The notes under the pieces are model-generated. The model was given only the letters and a program-made list of their open reading frames with translations. It did no database searches and had not been told where the DNA came from. Below, piece after piece: positions 9,996-48,502 of a stretch of 64,000 nt of DNA. The position numbers were made by a program, and so were the translations under genes. The DNA is from Candidatus Iainarchaeum sp. GTDB taxonomy: Archaea > Iainarchaeota > Iainarchaeia > Iainarchaeales > JAFCCW01. Each line of letters begins with the position of its first letter. The first letter of the stretch is position 1. The stretch covers positions 23,558 through 87,557 of the forward strand of contig JAFCCW010000004.1 in NCBI GenBank assembly GCA_017609985.1, given 5' to 3'.

Positions 9996-10290
9996 TTTTT
10001 TTCCTCCAAAATTCCTTAATCCTGTTTTCTGGTTTTTCTTCAATAAACTTTCCATCAATCCTAACTCTTTCTTTTCCCAATAAAAACTCTATTACAACTT
10101 CCCTTTTTGGAATAATTTTTTCGCCTGAACCTGTTTCAACAACAAGAGTGTTTTTTGTTTCATCAACAACTCTTCCGCACAACCCTTTTCTTGAGCTTTC
10201 CTTGCTTTCCAAGACCTTTACTTCAAGTCCGATAAGCTCGTGTGCTCCAAGGTTTTCTTTTGTTATGCGATATTGCTGTGATTCAAGCAT
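9982..10290 (-). CDS. rnp1: Ribonuclease P protein component 1 (Rpp29)
   Basis: Motifs HELIGLEV, GRVVDETKNT, IPK and PENRIK; canonical position. Confidence 0.93.
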   Translation of the reverse strand: MLESQQYRITKENLGAHELIGLEVKVLESKESSRKGLCGRVVDETKNTLVVETGSGEKIIPKREVVIEFLLGKERVRIDGKFIEEKPENRIKEFWRKKNGMQ

Positions 10291-10585
10291 CAATCAATTC
10301 CTCCTTAAATCCTTTTTTTATCAGGAAATCTTTAACTTTTTTCAGATGGTTTCCCTGCAGTTCAATTTCATCATCTTTTATTGTTCCTCCACAAGCAAAC
10401 TGCCTTTTCATTTCCTTTCCAAGCTCCTGAATGTTTGCATCTTTTTCTATTCCATTTACCGTAGTGACAATTTTTCCAAATCGTCTTCTTACTGTTCTAA
10501 CTTTTATTTTTGTCGATTCTTTTGCGATTTCACTGCAGACACAAAGCGACTGCGGCATTCCACATTTTTGGCAAACTCCACTCAT
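10283..10585 (-). CDS. Translation initiation factor SUI1/aIF1
   Basis: N-terminal CQKCGMPQSLCVC plus RRFGK, ACGGT and IELQGNH. Confidence 0.95.
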   Translation of the reverse strand: MSGVCQKCGMPQSLCVCSEIAKESTKIKVRTVRRRFGKIVTTVNGIEKDANIQELGKEMKRQFACGGTIKDDEIELQGNHLKKVKDFLIKKGFKEELIDA

Positions 10586-39216: not shown

Positions 39217-39288
39217 GCCCCTGTAGTCTAATGGTTAGGATACAGCCCTGTCAAGGCTGTGATTCGGGTTCGAACCCCGGCGGGGGCG
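39217..39288 (+). tRNA. tRNA-Asp (GUC), intron-less, CCA not encoded
   Basis: Acceptor stem GCCCCTG/CGGGGGC, anticodon arm CAGCC-ctGTCaa-GGCTG, T loop TTCGAAC and G discriminator. TTTAAAA box at ~39174. Confidence 0.95.
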
Positions 39289-39300
39289 CTTTAATCCTTC

Positions 39301-39750: not shown

Positions 39751-41316
39751 TCATAAAAAAATCTGCTTTACGCTAATAATGTTTTCAATGTTTTTTAATT
39801 TATCCATAACTTCTTCGCTGAGTGCAGAGTCAAGATTTATTATCGCAAGAGCTTTTTCTCCCTTGCTTTTTCTGCCAAGATGCCATTCTCCGATATTTAT
39901 TTTGTTTTCTCCAAGCAGGGTTCCCACTGCTCCAATTACTCCTGGCTTGTCGTAATTTTCCATGAGCAAAATTGTCCCAGCAGGGATAAAATCAGTATTG
40001 AATTCTTTAAGCTGGACAATTCTTTGCTTTTTTCCTTCAAGAATCGCTCCCTTTAAAACCTCGCTCTTGCTTCCATTGGATTTAACAGTTATCATGTTTG
40101 TGTAGTCTTCTTCTTCAAAACTTTTAGCCTGCTTTACTATGATGCCGTGCTTTGCCGCAATGACTGGGGAATTAACATAGTTTACTCCGTCTCTTATTCT
40201 GGAAAGCAATCCCTTGAGAAACGCAACAGTAACAAGTTTTATTCTTCCCTCCATTTCTCCCCGCGCCTCTATTTCAATTCCCTTGCCTGCATCCTCAAGC
40301 TGAGAATGCAGGTTTCCCATTGCCTCGGCAAGCTCAAGAAACGGTCTTAGCTTTATATAGTCCTCTCCTTCAAACGGCAGGTTTACAACATTTCTATAGC
40401 TTTTTTCTTTCAGTGCATCAGCAACCTGTTCTGCAAGCTGAATGGAAACTTTTTTCTGGCTCTCAAAAGTGTTTGCTCCAAGATGAGGAGTCACAAGAGT
40501 CTTTGGGTGCTTCACAAGCTTGCTTTCTTTTGGAGGTTCGTCTTCAAAAACATCAAGGCCTGCTCCATAAAGCTCTCCTTTGTCAAGAGCCTTAAGCAAT
40601 GCTTTTTCATTAACTATTCCTCCTCTGGCACAGTTAATTATCACAGCATTCTTTTTCATTTTTGAAATTTCCTTTTCTCCAATTAAATCTTTTGTTTCCG
40701 CATTCATTGGAGCGTGAATTGTAAGAACATCGCATTTCTCAAGCAGTTCCTCCAAGTCATCAACAAGTGTTGCTCCGCATTTCCATGCTCGTTCTTCTGG
40801 AATGTACGGGTCAAAGGCAAGCACCTCCATTTCAAATGCCTTGCATCTTTTTGCAATTCTGCTTCCAATTCTTCCAAGTCCAATTATTCCAACTGTTTTC
40901 TTGTAAAGCTCAAAACCAGTGAACTGTTTTCTTTTCCATTCTCCCTGTTTGAGGGAATCATTTGCATTAGGAATAGTTCTGCAAAGAGACAACAGCAAAG
41001 CCATTGTGTGTTCCACAGCACTAATTGTGTTCGCATCAGGAGTATTCATTACAATAATTCCTTTTTCAGAAGCACTGTCCAAATCTATGTTGTCAATCCC
41101 CACTCCGCCTCTGCCAACAAGTTTTAGTTTTCCAGAATTTTTCAAAAGCTCGCAATCAATCTTGGTTTCACTTCTCGTCAGCAGAGCATCAAATTCTCCA
41201 ATCAGGTCAAGCAATTCATTTCTTTTAATTCCTTGCTTTTCAACAACTTCAAAACCCTGTTCTCTTAGCATGTCAAGACCGCTTTTTTCAATTTCTCCAG
41301 TCACAAGGATTTTCAT
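39751..41316 (-). CDS. serA: D-3-phosphoglycerate dehydrogenase (long form, ASB + ACT)
   Basis: Motifs RGGVGIDNID, GLGRIG, NCARG, DVFEDEP and TPHLGA; C-terminal ACT domain DKPGVIG. Confidence 0.95.
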   Translation of the reverse strand: MKILVTGEIEKSGLDMLREQGFEVVEKQGIKRNELLDLIGEFDALLTRSETKIDCELLKNSGKLKLVGRGGVGIDNIDLDSASEKGIIVMNTPDANTISAVEHTMALLLSLCRTIPNANDSLKQGEWKRKQFTGFELYKKTVGIIGLGRIGSRIAKRCKAFEMEVLAFDPYIPEERAWKCGATLVDDLEELLEKCDVLTIHAPMNAETKDLIGEKEISKMKKNAVIINCARGGIVNEKALLKALDKGELYGAGLDVFEDEPPKESKLVKHPKTLVTPHLGANTFESQKKVSIQLAEQVADALKEKSYRNVVNLPFEGEDYIKLRPFLELAEAMGNLHSQLEDAGKGIEIEARGEMEGRIKLVTVAFLKGLLSRIRDGVNYVNSPVIAAKHGIIVKQAKSFEEEDYTNMITVKSNGSKSEVLKGAILEGKKQRIVQLKEFNTDFIPAGTILLMENYDKPGVIGAVGTLLGENKINIGEWHLGRKSKGEKALAIINLDSALSEEVMDKLKNIENIISVKQIFL

Positions 41317-42386
41317 TAATTCATCGCCTCAACAATTTCATTAATTGTTTCCAGCAATTCATTCACATCATTTAGGCTAGTGTCCCCCATGTGAGCAATC
41401 CTGAAAGTTCTTCCTGCAAGTTTTCCATATCCGTTTCCGATGAGAAAACCTTCTTTTTCAAGCTTTGAAATCAGCTCTGAAACATCAAGTCCTTTGTTGT
41501 TCTCAACAGCAGTAACTGTTAGGGATTCATAACCTGGTTCTGCAAACAAAGCCCATTCTTCTTCCGCCCATCCCTGAACAAGCTTTGCCATTTCCCAATG
41601 CCTCTCAAATCTCTGCTCCAGCCCCTCATCAAGAATTTCATTCAGTTTATGGTTTAGTGCATAAATTTGTGGAATTGCAGGAGTGCTTGGAGTCTGTGCT
41701 TTTTTATCATATTTTGCAAACTCTGTAAAGTCAAAATAATGCCCCCTGTTTTTGGTTTCAGAAGCTCGCTTAATTGCTCTGTCTGAAACAGATGCCATTG
41801 CAAGTCCTGGAGGGATAGCAAGACATTTTTGAGAAGATGCAAGAAGCACATCTATTCCAAGCTTGTCTGTTTCAATTTTTACTCCCCCCAAAGAACTCAC
41901 TGCATCAACACAAAACATTGTTTCAGGAAAGTCTTGCACAATTTTTGCAATTTTTTCAAGCTTGTTCATGGCACCGGTTGAAGTTTCATTATGAGTTAAA
42001 AAAACAGCATCAAATTTTTCTTTGCTCAACTGTTCTTCAACATCCCCTGCCTTGATTCCCAAACCCCAGTCATATTCAAGCTTTTCTGCTTTCTTTCCAT
42101 TTGCTTTTGCTATCTTAAACCATTTCTCGCTGAAAGCTCCGTTTACAAGATGAAGAGATTTGTTCTGGACAAGATTTCTTGTAGCTGCTTCCATGAGTCC
42201 GCTTCCGGAAGAAGTTGACAAAAAAATTCTGTTATCAGTAAACATTATTTTTCTTAAATTTCCAGTGACCTCTCTGTAAAGTTTAGAAAAGTCTTCTGAC
42301 CTGTGCCCAATCATCTGTTTTGAAAGACTGTTTCTAGTATTTTCACACAAGTTAACAGGCCCTGGAATAAACATTCTCTTAATCAT
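41316..42386 (-). CDS. Class V PLP aminotransferase (serine-pyruvate/phosphoserine aminotransferase type), probable SerC role
   Basis: Motifs IPGP, HNETSTG, DAVSS, SQK (PLP Lys) and FRIAHMG; overlaps both serB and serA. Confidence 0.88.
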   Translation of the reverse strand: MIKRMFIPGPVNLCENTRNSLSKQMIGHRSEDFSKLYREVTGNLRKIMFTDNRIFLSTSSGSGLMEAATRNLVQNKSLHLVNGAFSEKWFKIAKANGKKAEKLEYDWGLGIKAGDVEEQLSKEKFDAVFLTHNETSTGAMNKLEKIAKIVQDFPETMFCVDAVSSLGGVKIETDKLGIDVLLASSQKCLAIPPGLAMASVSDRAIKRASETKNRGHYFDFTEFAKYDKKAQTPSTPAIPQIYALNHKLNEILDEGLEQRFERHWEMAKLVQGWAEEEWALFAEPGYESLTVTAVENNKGLDVSELISKLEKEGFLIGNGYGKLAGRTFRIAHMGDTSLNDVNELLETINEIVEAMN

Positions 42387-43230
42387 CCTGTTTCACCTTC
42401 AATAAAGAATTTAGGTGGCTTCTTATTTTAATTGCTTTTCCTGAAAAATCAACCTGTTCAATCGCAAGTCTTGTTCCCTTTTTTGCAAGCAGGTCTCCAC
42501 CTTCAACAGCTTTCTTTAGTTTCTCTTGTCCAAGAGCAATTGCGTAAAAAGGAGCAAGTGATTCACAATTAATATAAACATCTGATTCTTTCTTCACGTT
42601 CTCTCTTTTCTCCACTCCACCGTATCCTGCAAAAAGCCCCACCTGATTTTTTACTTCAAGATCGCTTGACCCGTCACCAGTGTATATTATTTCCTCTGGC
42701 TTCGCTCCAATTGATTTAATCATCTCAATCTTTCCCTCGCTTTTCCATAAGGGGGATTTTTTATCAAATCCGATGAATTCCTGTTTTTTTCCATTTTCAA
42801 AATCAGAGTAATTCCACCAGTTTCCTGAAAGCTGGTCAAAGAACAATGGAACTGCGAGCACGTTCTTTTTTCTTATTCCAAGTCTCCAGGCAAATTTTTT
42901 CACTGGCTCTGAATAGCCTCCGCTTACAACAAAAACTTCAATTCCATTTTTCCTTAGACTTTCCACAGTTTGCTTTGCATCTTCAACTGCATTCTTTGTG
43001 TAAAGCTTCACCAGCTTTTCAATCTGTTCTCTTGACGGATTAATTATTTTCAGTCTTTTTTGAAAAACCTGTTCAAGTGGAATCTCTCCATCCATTGCTT
43101 TTTTTGTAAGCTCTTCAACTGCCTCAAACTTTCCCGCCAAGCGTGCTAGCTCGTCAATTCCCTCTATTCGTGAAAGCGTGGAATCACAATCAAAAACCGC
43201 AACTCTAAAACTGTTATCAAACAAGAACAA
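42379..43230 (-). CDS. serB: HAD-IB phosphoserine phosphatase
   Basis: Motifs FDCDSTL, EGIDELA, T..AMDG, VSGG and GDGSSD; TTG start after GGTGG. Confidence 0.88.
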   Translation of the reverse strand: MFLFDNSFRVAVFDCDSTLSRIEGIDELARLAGKFEAVEELTKKAMDGEIPLEQVFQKRLKIINPSREQIEKLVKLYTKNAVEDAKQTVESLRKNGIEVFVVSGGYSEPVKKFAWRLGIRKKNVLAVPLFFDQLSGNWWNYSDFENGKKQEFIGFDKKSPLWKSEGKIEMIKSIGAKPEEIIYTGDGSSDLEVKNQVGLFAGYGGVEKRENVKKESDVYINCESLAPFYAIALGQEKLKKAVEGGDLLAKKGTRLAIEQVDFSGKAIKIRSHLNSLLKVKQDD

Positions 43231-43273
43231 GCACCACCAAAAATTTTTGAATGCCTGCTTTATAGTGAGCAGG
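43226..43273 (-). promoter_or_regulatory. Alternative RNA helices (putative attenuator) covering the serB SD and start codon
   Basis: AGCAGG can pair with upstream CCUGCU, or AGCAGGCAUU can pair with GGUGCUUGUU (SD plus UUG start). Confidence 0.55.
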
Positions 43274-43325
43274 AAGATGACGAACTAGAACAAGAGCAAA
43301 AAACTGAATTTCTCAGGGCCATCAT
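43260..43325 (-). CDS. Putative Ser/Cys-rich leader peptide of the serine operon (MMALRNSVFCSCSSSSSSCSL)
   Basis: 21-codon ORF with 9 Ser and 3 Cys. Six consecutive Ser are encoded TCT AGT TCG TCA TCT TCC. Ends 29 nt before the serB start. Confidence 0.7.
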   Translation of the reverse strand: MMALRNSVFCSCSSSSSSCSL

Positions 43326-43364
43326 AAAATAATAAAGGCTCTACTTGTTTTTATTCTTTTCCAA

Positions 43365-44099
43365 CTATGAAAAAACTAGTTTAAACAAATACATTAAGCT
43401 TATTCCAATCGCAAAAGCTCCAAGCGCAGCAACAGACTTTTTCCAGCTTGTTTCCTTTTTTATTTCCGGAATCAAGCCAGATGCTGCAATGTACATAAAA
43501 CTTCCAGCAGTAAATGGGATAAGAGAAACAGCAAGCCAGCCAATATTTCCCATTATAAAATACCCTACAAGTCCGCCGATTATAACAGTCAGTGCAGAAG
43601 CAAAATTAAACAAAAGAGCTTTCATTTTGCTGAATCCGCCATAAACAAGAACTCCAAAATCGCCTATCTCCTGTGGAATTTCATGAAGTGCAACAGCAAA
43701 AAACGTGGTTATTCCAAGCTCAAAACTGGTTAGAAAAGATGCAGCTAAAATTAACCCATCAATAAAATTATGAAAACCATCTCCAATAAGAATCAGGTAT
43801 GACAAAGAATGCTGTTCACATTTTCCGCTGTGACAGTGATGCCAGTGAAGAAATTTTTCAATCGCCAAAAAAACACTAAATCCAATTATTGCAAGAACAA
43901 ACGCACCAATTCCTGGAATTTGCTCTGCAGCTTCAGGCAGCAGATGGAGTAAGGCACCGCCCATAAAAGCTCCTGCTGATAGTCCAACAAGAACAAGCAG
44001 TATCTTGTCCAAAATCTTGTCATTAATTGCAAGTGATACAATGCCTACAAATGCAATAAGTGCAATCGCAAAACTGCTTCCTAAAATCCATTCAAGTAT
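43365..44099 (-). CDS. ZIP family metal transporter
   Basis: Motifs HLLPEA, HWHHCH, DGFHNFIDG and HEIPQEIGDF. The frame stays open upstream of the ORF-track start to an ATA at 44099, adding TM1. Confidence 0.92.
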   Translation of the reverse strand: MLEWILGSSFAIALIAFVGIVSLAINDKILDKILLVLVGLSAGAFMGGALLHLLPEAAEQIPGIGAFVLAIIGFSVFLAIEKFLHWHHCHSGKCEQHSLSYLILIGDGFHNFIDGLILAASFLTSFELGITTFFAVALHEIPQEIGDFGVLVYGGFSKMKALLFNFASALTVIIGGLVGYFIMGNIGWLAVSLIPFTAGSFMYIAASGLIPEIKKETSWKKSVAALGAFAIGISLMYLFKLVFS

Positions 44100-44990
44100 C
44101 TAATCACCTATTTCTCCAAGAACACTTTCAACAATTGGCTCGAACAGTTTTTCAATCTTTGTACTGAATTCAACAGCAGGTTTCAGTTCCACAAGAGACT
44201 TTACAAAATCCTTGTCATAGGGGATTTTTCCAAGAACAGGAATCCCACTCTCTTTCGCAAAGATCTCTATTTCCTCTGTTTTTTCAGGATTCAAATCCCA
44301 TTGATTAATTATTATTCCATAAGGAATTCCAAATTGTTCCACAACCTGTAGGGCTCGTTTAAGGTCACTAAATCCGCTGGGGGTTGTTTCAGCTATTCCA
44401 ACAACAAAATCGCTTTCCCTTACTGCCGCAATAACCGGGCAACCAATTCCAGCAGCAGCATCCACTATAACCAATTCTGTATTTTCTTCTTCCGCAAGCT
44501 CTCTTGCAGCTTGCTTTACTTCATCAACAACTTTTCCAGAACCAGATTCTCCCATTTCAAGCTGGGCTCCAACCATCTTGAACCCATAATCTGTTTCTCC
44601 TCTCACTGCACTTGCATTCTCTATTTCCACAAGCTTGATTGCTCCAGCAGGACAGGCAAGAGCACATGCTCCGCAGCCCTCACAAAGAAATCTATTGAAC
44701 ACTGGTTTCTCTCCTGGTTTCCACGAAATCGCATTAAAGGCACAAATCTCCGCACACTTTCCGCAAGCAAGACATTTTTCTTCTGAAAAACTTGACTTGT
44801 GAGCCGCCTTTATTTTTTCTACTTCTTTTAACTTGTTTTTAAGACCAAGGGAAATTGCAAGATTTGGAGCATCAACATCAGCATCAACTGCCACAATCTT
44901 TTTTTCTTTTGCAATCATTACTGCAAGCGATGCGGTTATGGTTGTCTTTCCCGTGCCACCCTTTCCTGACAAAATAGTTAGGGTCTTCAT
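44100..44990 (-). CDS. MinD-superfamily P-loop ATPase with inserted ferredoxin domain (COG1149)
   Basis: Motifs SGKGGTGKT, DADVDAPN, two CxxCxxCxxxC and D.AAGIGCPV. Confidence 0.92.
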   Translation of the reverse strand: MKTLTILSGKGGTGKTTITASLAVMIAKEKKIVAVDADVDAPNLAISLGLKNKLKEVEKIKAAHKSSFSEEKCLACGKCAEICAFNAISWKPGEKPVFNRFLCEGCGACALACPAGAIKLVEIENASAVRGETDYGFKMVGAQLEMGESGSGKVVDEVKQAARELAEEENTELVIVDAAAGIGCPVIAAVRESDFVVGIAETTPSGFSDLKRALQVVEQFGIPYGIIINQWDLNPEKTEEIEIFAKESGIPVLGKIPYDKDFVKSLVELKPAVEFSTKIEKLFEPIVESVLGEIGD

Positions 44991-45829
44991 TTTAACACCT
45001 CCACTGCATCAGCTATTGCTTCAATTTCCTTTCCACTAATTGCCTCACCCAAAGAATATTTTTTTCTTATTTCTTTACTGTAAGGAATTTTTCCAACAAG
45101 CTCTGCATTAAATTTCTTTGCAATCTCTTCCACTTTTTCACTTTCTGCAATTCCTGCCTTGTTCAAAATAAGGTTTTTTGAAATTCCAAGCACGTCAAGA
45201 AGCTTTAAAATAAGCTGCACATCATGCTCCCCCAAGGGAGTTGGCTCTGTCACAGCAAACGCATGTTCCACACCGACCAGTGCAGAAATAACATTGCAAT
45301 GCGTTCCAGCAGCAGTATCTACAAGAACATAGTCAAATTCTTTCTCTATTTCAGTTGCCTTCTTCATCAAAGCATGGACAATTGGAGAGGCTTCTTCAAA
45401 ACCTATTTTTATTTCTCCAGTGAGAAGAGTAATTCCATCTTTTTCTCCTTTGTAAATAGCACCTATATTTTGCGTGTCATAGCTTATTGCTCCCACTGGA
45501 CATGCAAGACTGCAGGCACCGCATCCAGTGCACTGTTCTTTTACAAGAATAGGAGTTCTGTTTTTTACAAAAACAATAGCATTCTCCATGCAGTGCTCTG
45601 AGCACTTTCCGCACTTGGTGCATTTTTTCGAATCAAAAACAGGAATTTTTCCCTTAATATCATCAATTTTTTTTCTCTCGATTGAAAGAATCAAGTCGTC
45701 ATTAGGACAGTCTACATCCGCGTCCACTAAAAGAACTTTCTTTCCTCTTTTCCCAAGCTCTGTAGCCAAAGCTGTTGAGACAAGGCTCTTGCCTGTCCCT
45801 CCCTTTCCGCCAGTTATTCCAAGTTTCAT
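44987..45829 (-). CDS. MinD-superfamily P-loop ATPase with inserted ferredoxin domain (COG1149), second paralog
   Basis: Motifs GGKGGTGKS, DADVDCPN, two CxxCxxCxxxC, DTAAGTHC and VTEPTP. Confidence 0.92.
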   Translation of the reverse strand: MKLGITGGKGGTGKSLVSTALATELGKRGKKVLLVDADVDCPNDDLILSIERKKIDDIKGKIPVFDSKKCTKCGKCSEHCMENAIVFVKNRTPILVKEQCTGCGACSLACPVGAISYDTQNIGAIYKGEKDGITLLTGEIKIGFEEASPIVHALMKKATEIEKEFDYVLVDTAAGTHCNVISALVGVEHAFAVTEPTPLGEHDVQLILKLLDVLGISKNLILNKAGIAESEKVEEIAKKFNAELVGKIPYSKEIRKKYSLGEAISGKEIEAIADAVEVLK

Positions 45830-45831
45830 TT

Positions 45832-46170
45832 TTACACCTCAAAGTCTTCCAAAGCTTTTATTACCTGCTGCATATACATTAAGGCAGGACCCCCGCCCAT
45901 CATTGTGGCAACCCATGCAGCTTCCATTATTTCTTCTTTTTTAGCTCCGCTCTCCAACGCATTTTTTATGTGAAATGCAATGCACCATTTGCATTGAGAA
46001 TTCACTGATAATGCAACTAAGATAAGTTCTTTGTTTTTTTTAGATATTGCTCCTTCTTTTTCCACAGCATGCATAAATTCGTGAAAACTTTTCATTTGTT
46101 CAGGATATTCTTTTCCAAACTGTGCAAGATTTTTATTTATCTCCTCTAAGTATTTGTTTGAATCATTCAT
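45832..46170 (-). CDS. Carboxymuconolactone decarboxylase/AhpD family protein
   Basis: Motifs KELI, CKWCIAFH, GAKKEEI and MGGGP. Confidence 0.9.
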   Translation of the reverse strand: MNDSNKYLEEINKNLAQFGKEYPEQMKSFHEFMHAVEKEGAISKKNKELILVALSVNSQCKWCIAFHIKNALESGAKKEEIMEAAWVATMMGGGPALMYMQQVIKALEDFEV

Positions 46171-46181
46171 TCTATTGCCTC

Positions 46182-46514
46182 CTAATGCCCACAGCTTTCT
46201 GTTAGATCTTCAAGAAAGTCAAGGTTTTCAACAACTTCTTTAACTGTTCTATAATCGCCAGTTTTAAGAATTATTTTTCTATTTTTACATTCCTCTATTG
46301 CATTCATTCCCAGCCCGTGTGAAAAAATAGCATCTACTTTTTTTTCATCCAATGCAAGCACTGGCGAACAACCCGAACTCATTTGGTTAACTTTCACAAA
46401 CTCTAAACTTTTCGTTTCAGAATCATACACTGCGAGAAAAACAACATGCCCAAAATGGGGTGCGATTTCAGATTCCAATCCTTTATTATCTAATACTGGA
46501 ATTCCAATTTTCAT
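46182..46514 (-). CDS. NifB/NifX family protein
   Basis: Motifs MKIGIP, HFGH..F and GLG..A; C-terminal CGH. Confidence 0.85.
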   Translation of the reverse strand: MKIGIPVLDNKGLESEIAPHFGHVVFLAVYDSETKSLEFVKVNQMSSGCSPVLALDEKKVDAIFSHGLGMNAIEECKNRKIILKTGDYRTVKEVVENLDFLEDLTESCGH

Positions 46515-46783
46515 TCCGAATCAGCTCCGTTTTTTGTTTCTTCTAACTTTTTTGCATTTTGCTCTTCAATTAATTTTATTCCAAGCCCTTTAAACCCATA
46601 AAAAGAAAAATATGCTGAAGCAAAGAAAACAATTAACAAAAAGACATTTCCAAAAGAAAGCAATCCAAACACAATAAACATTGCAGGATAAAGATAACGT
46701 CTATACCAGCAGCTTTCCTCGTTTACAGTAAAATAATATATAAGCGTAAACAGTAACGCAATAATTCCAAAAATTTCATTCAT
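46511..46783 (-). CDS. Small membrane hypothetical protein
   Basis: 2-3 hydrophobic segments; overlaps both neighbours in the operon. Confidence 0.6.
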   Translation of the reverse strand: MNEIFGIIALLFTLIYYFTVNEESCWYRRYLYPAMFIVFGLLSFGNVFLLIVFFASAYFSFYGFKGLGIKLIEEQNAKKLEETKNGADSE

Positions 46784-48041
46784 TCAAACCATCTCCTTTC
46801 TTTGTGTGCTTATCAAGCCTTTCAAGTTTTCCCCCTGCAAAATTTTTTGCAACCTCTTCAACAGTTTTTCCCTTAAGAAAATAAATATCTACGAAATGGT
46901 CTCTGATTGTGTGAAAAGAAATTTCCCCAAGATTTGAAGTAACAAGAGCATCTGCTTTCTCTTTGCAGATAAGATTGGATGCGTCCAACCCTGCTTTGAC
47001 ATTTTTTTTAGTGAATGGATTTTTCTTGCAGTAATGCTCTACAATTTCTCCGCTGTCTGAATTAATTGTTACAAAAATGAATTTCTTTGCTCTGCCAAAC
47101 TTTCCCAAGGCAATACTTTCAAGACCATTATCTTCTTCAACAGGAATAGCAATTTTTTGTTCAACTGTCTTAAATGGTTCTATGTGAATGCTTATTCTTT
47201 CAACTTCGGGAATTGCATTCATAACTCTTTTCTCGATTCTGTCAGAAATTGCATGAGCTCTCTGCACATCAATATTTTTCTTGATTTTTATTATAATTTC
47301 TCCAAAAATAAACGGACCTGCTTTTCTCAGCATAATGTTTCCTATTCCTGCCACGTTTGGAACACTGCTTACAATTCTTGTAACCCTGCTTTCAACTTCC
47401 TTGCTTGCGCCAACATCCATTAGCGCAAAAACAGAGTCTCTTGCATTTTCAAAACCGATTTTTAAAATCATCAAAGAAATTGCAATAGTTATTGCTCCCT
47501 CTACATATGGAACACTAAAATAAGAAAGCAGAATAGCAATGAAAACAATTCCTGACGCAAGAATATCAACTTTTTTGTCGTCAGCATTTGCCTTAAGCGA
47601 ATCAGACTTTGTTTCTTCACCAATCTTTTTCAAATATCTTTCATTCCAAAAGCTTGCAATAATTGAAACCCCTGCTACTCCAAGAGCAATCAAAGGCATT
47701 TCAATATTTGATGGCAAAAATAAAGCAAGATATCCATTGTACAATGTTTCAATTGCAGCGTAAAGAATTACAATTGAAACAGTGAGAGCTGCAAGATTTT
47801 CTGCCTTAAAATATCCATAGGGAAATTTTTCATCTGGTTCTCTTTGCGCAATTTTTAGCCCAAACCAGGCTGCTGCTCCTGCAACAAGGTCTGTTCCAGA
47901 ATGAAGCGCATCACTAATCAATACAACGCTTCCAGACATCAAACCAGCTACTCCCTTTCCCAAAGCAAGAGCTAAAGAAATCAATGCAGTAACTGCTGCT
48001 GCCTTTTCTCCCCTCTTGAGAGACTTTTGCTTTTCATTCAT
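46776..48041 (-). CDS. Cation diffusion facilitator fused to a C-terminal NifB/NifX domain
   Basis: Motifs DALHS..D, FPYGYFKAE, AHAISD and IHIEP, followed by KIAIPV...FGRAKKF. Confidence 0.9.
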   Translation of the reverse strand: MNEKQKSLKRGEKAAAVTALISLALALGKGVAGLMSGSVVLISDALHSGTDLVAGAAAWFGLKIAQREPDEKFPYGYFKAENLAALTVSIVILYAAIETLYNGYLALFLPSNIEMPLIALGVAGVSIIASFWNERYLKKIGEETKSDSLKANADDKKVDILASGIVFIAILLSYFSVPYVEGAITIAISLMILKIGFENARDSVFALMDVGASKEVESRVTRIVSSVPNVAGIGNIMLRKAGPFIFGEIIIKIKKNIDVQRAHAISDRIEKRVMNAIPEVERISIHIEPFKTVEQKIAIPVEEDNGLESIALGKFGRAKKFIFVTINSDSGEIVEHYCKKNPFTKKNVKAGLDASNLICKEKADALVTSNLGEISFHTIRDHFVDIYFLKGKTVEEVAKNFAGGKLERLDKHTKKGDGLNE

Positions 48042-48502
48042 TGCATTCCTCTTCTTCCTGCGCCCATTCCTCGCCCCTGACCAGCGCCTGCTCCTCTGCC
48101 TTGGCCGGCTCCAAAGCCTGCGCCCGTGGTTGGCTTTCCACCGCTTCCCATTGGACCGGGCATGCTTAACTCTTGAAGCTTTCCGCTGGCTGCTTCAATA
48201 ACACTTTTTTCAATGCTTCCGCCATTTCCAACAAAAACCTTTATTCCTAATTCATTCATTACTCCAAAAGCTCTTGGCCCCATGGCTCCGGTTACTATTG
48301 CTTCAACTCCCTCGTTTCCAATAAGCTGTGCTGCGCTGATTCCAGCCCCGCCAGCTTGCCCAACAGCTGTGTTTTGCAAACTTTTTATTTCTTTGACTTC
48401 TTCTCCTTCAACTTCTGCTATTACAAAAAATGGACATCTGCCAAAAATAGGGCTTGACTCTGCATCCAATCCTTGTCCTTGAGAACTTACTGCTATCTTC
48501 AA
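48038..48502 (-). CDS. NifB/NifX family protein with Gly/Arg-rich tail
   Basis: Motifs FGRCPFF, GGAGI and GAMGPRA; tail contains GAGQGRG repeats. Confidence 0.9.
   Translation of the reverse strand: MKIAVSSQGQGLDAESSPIFGRCPFFVIAEVEGEEVKEIKSLQNTAVGQAGGAGISAAQLIGNEGVEAIVTGAMGPRAFGVMNELGIKVFVGNGGSIEKSVIEAASGKLQELSMPGPMGSGGKPTTGAGFGAGQGRGAGAGQGRGMGAGRRGMQ

Follow-up and report, generated by a model that had tools for sequence, protein, structure and literature searches.

A serine-rich small open reading frame ahead of an archaeal serB-serC-serA operon: a candidate leaderless serine-sensing leader

In bacteria, the control of amino-acid operons by leader peptides is textbook knowledge, and the locus described here raises the question whether an archaeon has built something of this kind for serine. 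The locus lies in a stretch of 64,000 nucleotides (nt), hereafter the window, from contig JAFCCW010000004.1 of Candidatus Iainarchaeum sp. (assembly GCA_017609985.1) and consists of a serine-rich small open reading frame (ORF) upstream of a serB-serC-serA operon. The genome (G000) comprises 1.16 Mb on 37 contigs, is 86.6% complete and has a G+C content of 38.8%; an archaeal small-subunit rRNA (SSU) model matches it end to end at 1398 bits and was the winner of the clan competition. An earlier note, made from the sequence alone, had read the small ORF as a leader that senses the charging of seryl-tRNA. The ORF, its position and its promoter held up, conservation and switch structure did not, and this serine-sensing reading can now be kept only tentatively. 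We regard a lineage-specific, leaderless serine-sensing upstream ORF (uORF) before serBCA as plausible but unproven, and chance as about equally likely. The finding rests on one genome.

A serine-rich small ORF in the gap before serB

The small ORF and its most conspicuous part are located as follows.

43260..43325, minus strand: small ORF of 21 codons plus stop, encoding MMALRNSVFCSCSSSSSSCSL; predicted to be leaderless, beginning at or no more than 2 nt from the transcription start
43266..43298, minus strand: Cys/Ser tract comprising codons 10-20, which read C S C S S S S S S C S

Read from 43325 to 43260, the codons are ATG ATG GCC CTG AGA AAT TCA GTT TTT TGC TCT TGT TCT AGT TCG TCA TCT TCC TGC TCA CTA TAA. 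Nine of the 21 sense codons, nearly half, specify Ser and three specify Cys. Six Ser stand in a row and are written with five different codons (TCT AGT TCG TCA TCT TCC); TCN accounts for eight of the nine Ser codons, AGC is absent, and the choice of Ser codons resembles genomic usage. Across the Cys/Ser tract the first codon position is T in 10 of 11 codons and the second is C or G in all 11, and the three-base period is strict. The ORF occupies the middle of a 134-nt gap that extends from the stop of a ZIP gene (43365) to the start of the longest serB ORF (43230). It sits directly 5' of the ser operon, as the earlier note had it, and on the same strand, in the only sizeable gap before the genome's sole long-form serA operon. 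From its stop codon it is 35 nt to the serB TTG at 43224 and 29 nt to an alternative TTG. The ORF itself, the length of the gap, the residue counts, the codon variety and the AATAAAAA box ending 22 nt before the first ATG, all reported in the earlier note, were confirmed, the strand being minus.

Such an ORF is rare in this genome. A crude gene set of 1131 long ORFs covers 90% of the genome, and wholly within the remaining 583 crude intergenic stretches lie 764 ATG ORFs of 10-50 amino acids (aa). The background rate, proposed earlier as a check, came out in favour of the ORF, which holds the sole Ser run of at least six among these 764. Runs of at least six of any single residue occur in three of them (one of Lys, one of Leu and the present one of Ser). 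When ATG ORFs of 10-80 aa in any frame of the whole genome were counted, three of 10491 contained a Ser run of at least six, the small ORF included. A second copy of the 134-nt gap was not found elsewhere in the genome.

This rarity has to be set against an explanation that is, to our minds, similarly credible and equally provisional. The gap would then hold the serBCA promoter and a pyrimidine-rich 5' untranslated region (UTR), an ATG would happen to stand at the start site, and the Ser/Cys frame would be accidental, perhaps translated but with no serine-specific role. The two other runs of six of one residue among the 764 intergenic ORFs speak for such an accident, and very many windows were scanned, so that a few coincidences of this kind, by our estimate a handful for a scan of this size, are expected by chance. 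What chance has to explain, however, is a rare joint event: the only intergenic Ser run of at least six coincides with a promoter score in the top 0.36% of intergenic ATGs and with a site directly before a serine operon on the right strand. It also has to explain a strict three-base period that is not the product of a tandem repeat. Tandem Repeats Finder reported no repeat in the tract region at a score of at least 30, which ruled out a decayed microsatellite as the source of the Ser tract.

Two further ideas were tried and rejected. For a duplicated 5' end of serB only a 12-nt direct repeat (D1) was found. A -1 frameshift fusion of the small ORF to serB was discarded by eye, a TAG at 43290-43288 lying in the serB frame with no slippery site after it.

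The first ATG has the context of a leaderless start

Two elements upstream of the small ORF suggest where transcription may begin.

43348..43355, minus strand: TATA-like box AATAAAAA, which starts at -30 from the first ATG and ends 22 nt before it
43356..43362, minus strand: purine-rich stretch GGAAAAG, resembling a B recognition element (BRE), just 5' of the TATA-like box; read from the sequence

Archaea have a characteristic TATA-box geometry and couple transcription to translation, and leaderless translation is common among them. In this genome we surveyed a set of 336 ATG-start genes whose upstream 60 nt are free of coding sequence. TATA-like hexamers cluster at -31 to -28 from the ATG (in 22, 42, 39 and 27 genes, respectively, with the peak at -30/-29), compared with 2-16 genes at most other positions. 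In the same genes Shine-Dalgarno (SD)-like tetramers cluster at -13 to -9, with the top at -11 to -9; this class has GGTG/GGAG-like sites and is separate from the TATA-positioned class. Judged from these start contexts, the two peaks show that the genome employs both leaderless and SD-led starts, and leaderless mRNAs widely.

The 246 genes without an SD share a profile with TTTAAAAA at -30 to -23, an A-rich stretch at -36 to -33 and TT at -4/-3. The first ATG of the small ORF is preceded by AATAAAAA at -30 to -23, by AAAA at -35 to -32 and by TT at -4/-3. It scores 5.97 bits against the profile; 8.5% of the 246 genes score as high, as do 0.36% of 2795 intergenic ATGs. For the second ATG the value is 0.54 bits, and 43325-43323 are the sole positions in the whole 134-nt gap that exceed 3 bits as a start. 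The idea of a leaderless transcript, which had been drawn from the box and its spacing, is thus strengthened by the genome-wide peak and by the isolated high score. What is best supported is a serBCA transcript beginning with the first ATG of the small ORF; with this predicted start, ribosomes would read the ORF as a first cistron that has no leader. None of this promoter evidence depends on the Ser tract. The 134-nt gap would in any case be a natural site for a promoter, and from the A-rich stretch at -36 to -33 in genes without an SD we infer that GGAAAAG may serve as a BRE.

The genes behind the small ORF

The operon and its start region comprise the following features.

42379..43230, minus strand: serB-like HAD-IB phosphatase, longest ORF (Pfam HAD families)
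41316..42386, minus strand: serC-like class-V aminotransferase (Pfam Aminotran_5)
39751..41316, minus strand: serA, long-form D-3-phosphoglycerate dehydrogenase with ACT domain, 521 aa (Pfam 2-Hacid_dh, PGDH_inter, ACT)
43232..43238, minus strand: SD-like GGTGGTG for serB, its second GGTG starting at -11 from the TTG at 43224, a spacing that falls on the SD peak of this genome
43222..43224, minus strand: likely serB start TTG (alternative TTG at 43230-43228), from SD spacing and the Leu start of relatives
43239..43243, minus strand: run of five T (T5) between the small ORF stop and the serB SD, part of the AAAAATTTTT palindrome; six T (T6) in the near strain described below

The gene names of the earlier note fared unevenly. 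SerA passes the TIGR01327 equivalog model (649 bits against a cut-off of 454) and is the only operon member to pass such a model. The best NCBIfam match of the serB-like protein is serB TIGR00338, at 113 bits below the cut-off of 144, and it passes only the subfamily model HAD-SF-IB, while the serC-like protein reaches the cut-off of no NCBIfam equivalog model, so that 'serB' and 'serC' are names given by context. The Joint Genome Institute (JGI) calls relatives of the serB-like protein phosphoserine phosphatase.

No ATG is present in the serB-like gene near the conserved DxDxT motif. The protein called as the serB product (P0001, 281 aa) begins LFDNSF, and a 73% identical protein (P0002) begins LFDNTF. 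Since P0002 also begins with Leu at the same position, the sequences suggest that the weak TTG start is shared by serB and this relative. Termination at oligo-T is known from archaea, and a part for the T5 run in such termination is conjecture. Just beyond the end of serA, on the opposite (plus) strand, lies a tRNA-Asp gene (GTC, 39217-39289); it is the neighbouring tRNA, and a tRNA-Ser beside serA was ruled out.

How the small ORF might sense serine

If the small ORF is a serine-sensing leader, it would be the first cistron of a leaderless serB-serC-serA transcript, and the following element would matter for its action.

43143..43163, minus strand: part of serB that encodes the conserved I-E-G-I-D-E-L-A motif; would be the 3' arm of a predicted long-range helix whose other arm is the Ser tract (43291-43271)

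Transcription would begin at the first ATG, and ribosomes would translate the small ORF by default. When seryl-tRNA is scarce, they would stall on codons 11-18 and mask the arm of the leader that otherwise pairs with codons some 60-80 nt past the start of serB. As this helix encloses the serB initiation region, its masking would raise the expression of serB, serC and serA. With plentiful serine the small ORF would be read fast, the helix would re-form and expression would fall. Control of this type would be that of a translational attenuator in the style of the mycobacterial leaderless small ORFs (sORFs), not a terminator switch of the trp type. Cells can reach cysteine from phosphoserine by a tRNA-dependent route, and the ORF would perhaps sense cysteine besides serine. 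Least secure among these steps are the direction in which expression would change and the part played by the helix.

In its most far-reaching form, which we consider rather unlikely, the locus would be the first ribosome-mediated amino-acid sensor in Archaea: a leaderless uORF that reads seryl-/cysteinyl-tRNA, masks a helix, switches an acquired serB together with the native serC-serA, and evolved de novo in one small-genome lineage, as proposed for the mycobacterial 'ribulon'. If the small ORF does sense serine as outlined above, archaea could build amino-acid sensors from a 5'-terminal AUG and a codon run alone, and such sensors could arise quickly beside newly acquired genes in very small, regulator-poor genomes. 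If the ORF is there by chance, it provides a useful warning, because one and the same set of letters yields the run of Ser, the acidic frame in antisense and the complementarity with acidic codons.

Modelled RNA structure supplies no convincing switch

Serine sensing stays plausible and gains independent support from the promoter geometry. The results on RNA structure, on relatives and on other small ORFs, together with the reading of the opposite strand, weigh against it.

The earlier note had placed the locus beside the classical attenuators of the trp and his type, and this part of its proposal was rejected. Archaeal termination differs from bacterial termination; terminator-like sites of the bacterial type numbered zero in 43000-43600, and the T5 run has no adjacent stem. 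Leader folds were no better than those of shuffled sequences (z -0.56 and -1.46), and for the 196-nt fold z was -1.73, at best a marginal advantage, with 14 of 200 shuffles folding as well. Neither a clear pair of alternative hairpins nor an antiterminator-terminator switch was found in the leader folds, and no switch emerged when ribosome footprints were imposed on the leader. A T-box or riboswitch was likewise rejected for want of a curated covariance-model match: in an Rfam scan of the whole window only a tRNA reached the gathering score, and in 43150-43420 there were three matches only (E 0.43-0.54), far below the cut-offs.

Stalling was modelled by imposing 30-nt ribosome footprints on predicted RNA folds. 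A local hairpin is predicted to run from just past the small ORF stop, via the AAAAAUUUUU palindrome, to the SD, which is partly hidden in it. In the free RNA the stretch from the SD to the serB start has an unpaired probability of 0.24-0.29. With the A site on the Ser codons 11-18 the value is 0.24-0.32, about that of the free RNA, so that modelled stalling leaves the serB SD paired; with the ribosome at codon 20 it is 0.17-0.44, varying with RNA length. The only position that opens the region is the small ORF stop codon, at 0.48-0.53. On its face the model predicts the opposite logic, in which translation of the small ORF helps serB, because completing the ORF exposes serB in the model and stalling in the Ser run does not.

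The long-range helix is the other structural candidate. The Ser tract and the serB codons form an inverted repeat (I1) of 21 nt that is 76% complementary. Predicted with RNAs of 196-266 nt, the helix encloses the serB initiation region with about 17.5 expected pairs; at each of three RNA lengths practically the entire predicted ensemble contains it, and some 16-20 kcal/mol are lost when the tract is blocked. A duplex at least as stable as the one calculated here (-31.7 kcal/mol) was formed by 1.3% of shuffled leaders, by 1.1% of random genomic 39-mers and by 0.6% of random targets, with 1500 sequences in each set. Under synonymous recoding of the tract the share was 6.5% for 1500 usage-weighted recodings and 18% for 300 uniform ones. 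The lone AGT codon of the tract stands within a CTAG that is paired with a CTAG of the serB target. A stalled ribosome is predicted to block this helix; the SD lies in the separate hairpin, and its pairing would be unchanged.

These figures bear equally on the idea that the element acts as RNA only, the leader having been selected to pair with early serB codons so that a helix between 5' UTR and coding sequence sets mRNA stability or initiation, and the Ser/Cys reading being a by-product of complementarity to the GAN codons of E-G-I-D-E-L-A. The 21-nt inverted repeat, the dominance and the cost of the helix in the predicted ensemble, a duplex in the 1% tail against shuffles and random partners, and the paired CTAG motifs are what one would expect of such an element. 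Yet the codons used are not significantly better suited to pairing than their synonyms, 6.5-18% of the recodings doing as well, the z of the whole fold is only -1.73, and both the ATG at the predicted start site and an open frame of 21 codons are left unexplained; we give this idea little credence. The helix may itself be a by-product, since any Ser run pairs with any acidic coding stretch. As complementarity it is real, largely following from a Ser run set against acidic codons; in the folding model it offers a possible handle for a stalled ribosome, and no proof of one.

The same letters on the opposite strand

Across the small ORF the plus strand reads through to YSEQEDDELEQEQKTEFLRAIIK and a stop in a frame that is open for 52 codons and looks like a typical acidic tail; TCN codons for a run of Ser become, on the opposite strand, GAN codons for a run of acidic residues. 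The five different Ser codons had been taken in the earlier note as a sign of selection on Ser decoding. That argument is weak, because the same letters make varied Glu/Asp/Gln/Leu codons on the other strand, and they pair with serB codons as well.

The plus-strand frame could itself be the older sequence, a relic of an acidic coding region whose gene was disrupted when serB was inserted. Its 52 open codons and acidic character fit this, and an insertion must have occurred, as the serC-serA operons of relatives lack serB. The frame has, however, no ATG, GTG or TTG start, over half its length it runs antisense to the 5' end of serB, and homologous sequence was not found elsewhere in the genome; we think an origin of this sort very improbable.

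Relatives and the near strain

The conservation check suggested by the earlier note also counts against serine sensing, which failed the conservation tests that were run. The serB type of this operon occurs in one of 215 genomes of the phylum at E<=1e-20, namely in G000 itself, and in a search of 41 genomes the best SerB match outside it had E 5e-11. A single-protein scan of genome contigs did not find close SerB relatives. In the protein database there is one close relative, the P0002 mentioned above (73% identical), on a 2870-nt JGI contig; all others are at most 48% identical, and those with names are bacterial. The best 80 genome loci for SerB are all bacterial by title, mostly from Chloroflexota with one cyanobacterium and two labelled 'bacterium'. 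A metagenome scan gave 80 loci of 33-63% identity over the best segment, and the P0002 contig was not among them. Since the named relatives are bacterial, mostly Chloroflexota, and serB stands in front only in this genome, the sequences suggest that the serB-like gene was horizontally acquired. No genomes at a useful distance were found to carry this serB.

Small ORFs within 300 nt upstream of these serB loci were surveyed for Ser runs. In the 74 of 80 metagenome loci with enough upstream sequence the longest run was 4, and in 79 of the 80 bacterial genome loci it was 3. The serA side gave the same picture. A SerA-like match at E<=1e-40 is present in 51 of the 215 genomes, and the long form outside G000 in one other genome only (G018), whose lone long serA has no Ser-rich ORF upstream. 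In relatives the serA-like dehydrogenase is short (about 312 aa), and a SerC homologue (41-55% identical) directly precedes it in 24 of 29 loci (L094-L122). Upstream of 21 serC-serA operons of the same order, being those whose 5' end is complete and preceded by 196 nt or more of sequence, the longest Ser run was 2, and upstream of 28 serA-like genes of that order it was 3. By this comparison of sequences, serC-serA appears widespread in the order, and serB, the long SerA and the small ORF appear peculiar to this lineage. A Ser-rich uORF was not found at any comparable locus of relatives, as an accidental frame would predict.

A near strain is represented by DNA contigs of run X1 from a hydrothermal-vent metagenome study, with 137 differences in all. 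They cover two stretches, 43115-43285 with 7 changes and an additional A behind 43238 (plus strand), and 43261-44100 with 115 changes. The small ORF is intact and open in this strain, a point against mere chance. The differences listed within it affect codons 3-5 only (43319, Ala>Thr; 43316, Leu>Val; 43311, synonymous in Arg), and another change lies just upstream at 43328. Among the differences listed none falls in 43261-43310, and the sole indel is in the spacer. That five random changes over 43261-43365 should all fall outside the 50-nt tract has a probability of 0.036. The small ORF is nevertheless no better kept than the serB coding sequence, which diverges by 3-5%. Of 840 positions in the ZIP gene 115 (about 14%) differ, compared with 3-5% for the serB pieces, and the shift in divergence comes near 43311, a position within the 5' end of the small ORF. 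There may be a recombination boundary near 43311, and with serB 3-5% and ZIP about 14% divergent such a boundary explains the conservation of the tract equally well.

Other small ORFs of the genome

A TATA-like hexamer at -31 to -28 precedes 52 of 1183 intergenic ATGs that open ORFs of 8-50 codons, and among these 52 no other ORF is enriched in a residue cognate to the downstream gene. A multi-locus 'ribulon' in the genome was rejected, a second locus of this kind not having been found, and this singularity again favours chance, as do the missing attenuator structure and an SD that stays hidden in modelled stalling. Two small ORFs with Cys-Cys precede, by eye, unrelated-looking genes, for a DNA-alkylation-repair protein and UMP kinase. 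Outside the window, on the plus strand of contig C32 at about 10204-10336, a TATA-positioned ATG ORF contains three 21-nt tandem copies and encodes a peptide with EECQQVL. A gene of 515 aa, to the eye one for a 2-isopropylmalate/citramalate synthase, begins 42 nt downstream of it, and the ORF could be a repeated regulator site or another leader.

The upstream metal cluster and a possible peptide product

On its other side the small ORF adjoins a gene of different character.

43365..44012, minus strand: ZIP-family metal transporter (Pfam Zip, 9.4e-38), last gene of an upstream metal/Fe-S cluster on the same strand

Together with the ZIP gene, the minus strand at 44100-48502 forms a tightly packed cluster for metal and Fe-S handling in what is a very small genome. 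It encodes a CDF cation-efflux protein with a fused NifX-like domain, two more NifX-like (Nitro_FeMo-Co) proteins, a CMD-family protein and two MinD-type ATPases with ferredoxin inserts, besides the ZIP transporter.

With such neighbours the small ORF might be supposed to encode a functional Cys/Ser-rich peptide, either the precursor of a ribosomally synthesized and post-translationally modified peptide (RiPP) or a metal-binding peptide tied to the ZIP/metal cluster. Ser/Cys-rich cores occur in azole-containing peptides, and the ORF does adjoin the metal-transport and Fe-S genes. A YcaO (PF02624) match was not found in the genome (86.6% complete), on which ground a RiPP precursor was rejected, nor was a modification enzyme found among the neighbours scanned. 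The approximately nine residues before the Ser/Cys tract are too few for a usual leader, and residues 3 and 4 differ in the near strain. A functional peptide is accordingly, in our judgement, hardly to be expected here.

Comparison with known systems

In the literature searched we found no serine leader peptide for serA or serB, the list of 14 Deinococcus deserti leader peptides lying outside that search; an archaeal leader-peptide attenuator and the phrase 'serine-rich leader peptide' were not found there either. In the classical trp, his, leu, thr, ilv and phe attenuators, as outlined in the cited article, charged tRNA is sensed via the speed of the ribosome (PMC4007540). The present locus resembles them in having a short uORF rich in the cognate residue, on the same strand and before a biosynthetic operon. 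It differs in that there is no hairpin-plus-U terminator, that no clear alternative hairpins are apparent and that the leader ORF has no SD of its own.

For D. deserti 14 leaderless leader peptides are predicted in the same article, and mapped start sites support them (PMC4007540). Like the small ORF they are bioinformatic predictions; unlike it they are bacterial, and their start sites were mapped experimentally, whereas here the start is predicted. Serine supply is read by other means in two bacteria, according to the cited accounts: a T-box controls serine biosynthesis in Paenibacillus polymyxa (PMC8002221), and in Bacillus subtilis the TCN serine codons of sinR respond to it (PMC3862929). 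Common to these systems and the proposed leader is that serine is read via the charging of seryl-tRNA or pausing on Ser codons. The T-box RNA, however, binds the tRNA, and no Rfam match was obtained here, while the sinR codons lie inside the regulated gene and those described here in an upstream ORF.

The closest analogue appears to be the group of mycobacterial polycysteine leaderless sORFs, which attenuate cysteine operons (the 'Cys ribulon') and in which, by the preprint's account, stalled ribosomes block an RNA duplex that conceals the next gene's ribosome-binding site (Canestrari et al., bioRxiv 10.1101/834739). The differences from that account are considerable. The organism is an archaeon, the residues are serine (six in a row) and three Cys, the start is only predicted, and a single locus is present in this genome. 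Moreover, the predicted duplex joins the Ser tract to the serB coding sequence and not to a ribosome-binding site, and modelled stalling leaves the accessibility of the SD unraised. What the two share, as far as the mycobacterial system is described there, is a short ORF at the 5' end of the transcript (predicted here) as first cistron before an SD-led biosynthetic gene, at least two consecutive codons for the amino acid of the pathway (here six Ser), and the absence of a terminator, the control proposed for mycobacteria being a stalled ribosome that blocks an RNA duplex. If the small ORF is real as a sensor, it would be an archaeal, serine form of the leaderless sensory sORF and not a classical attenuator.

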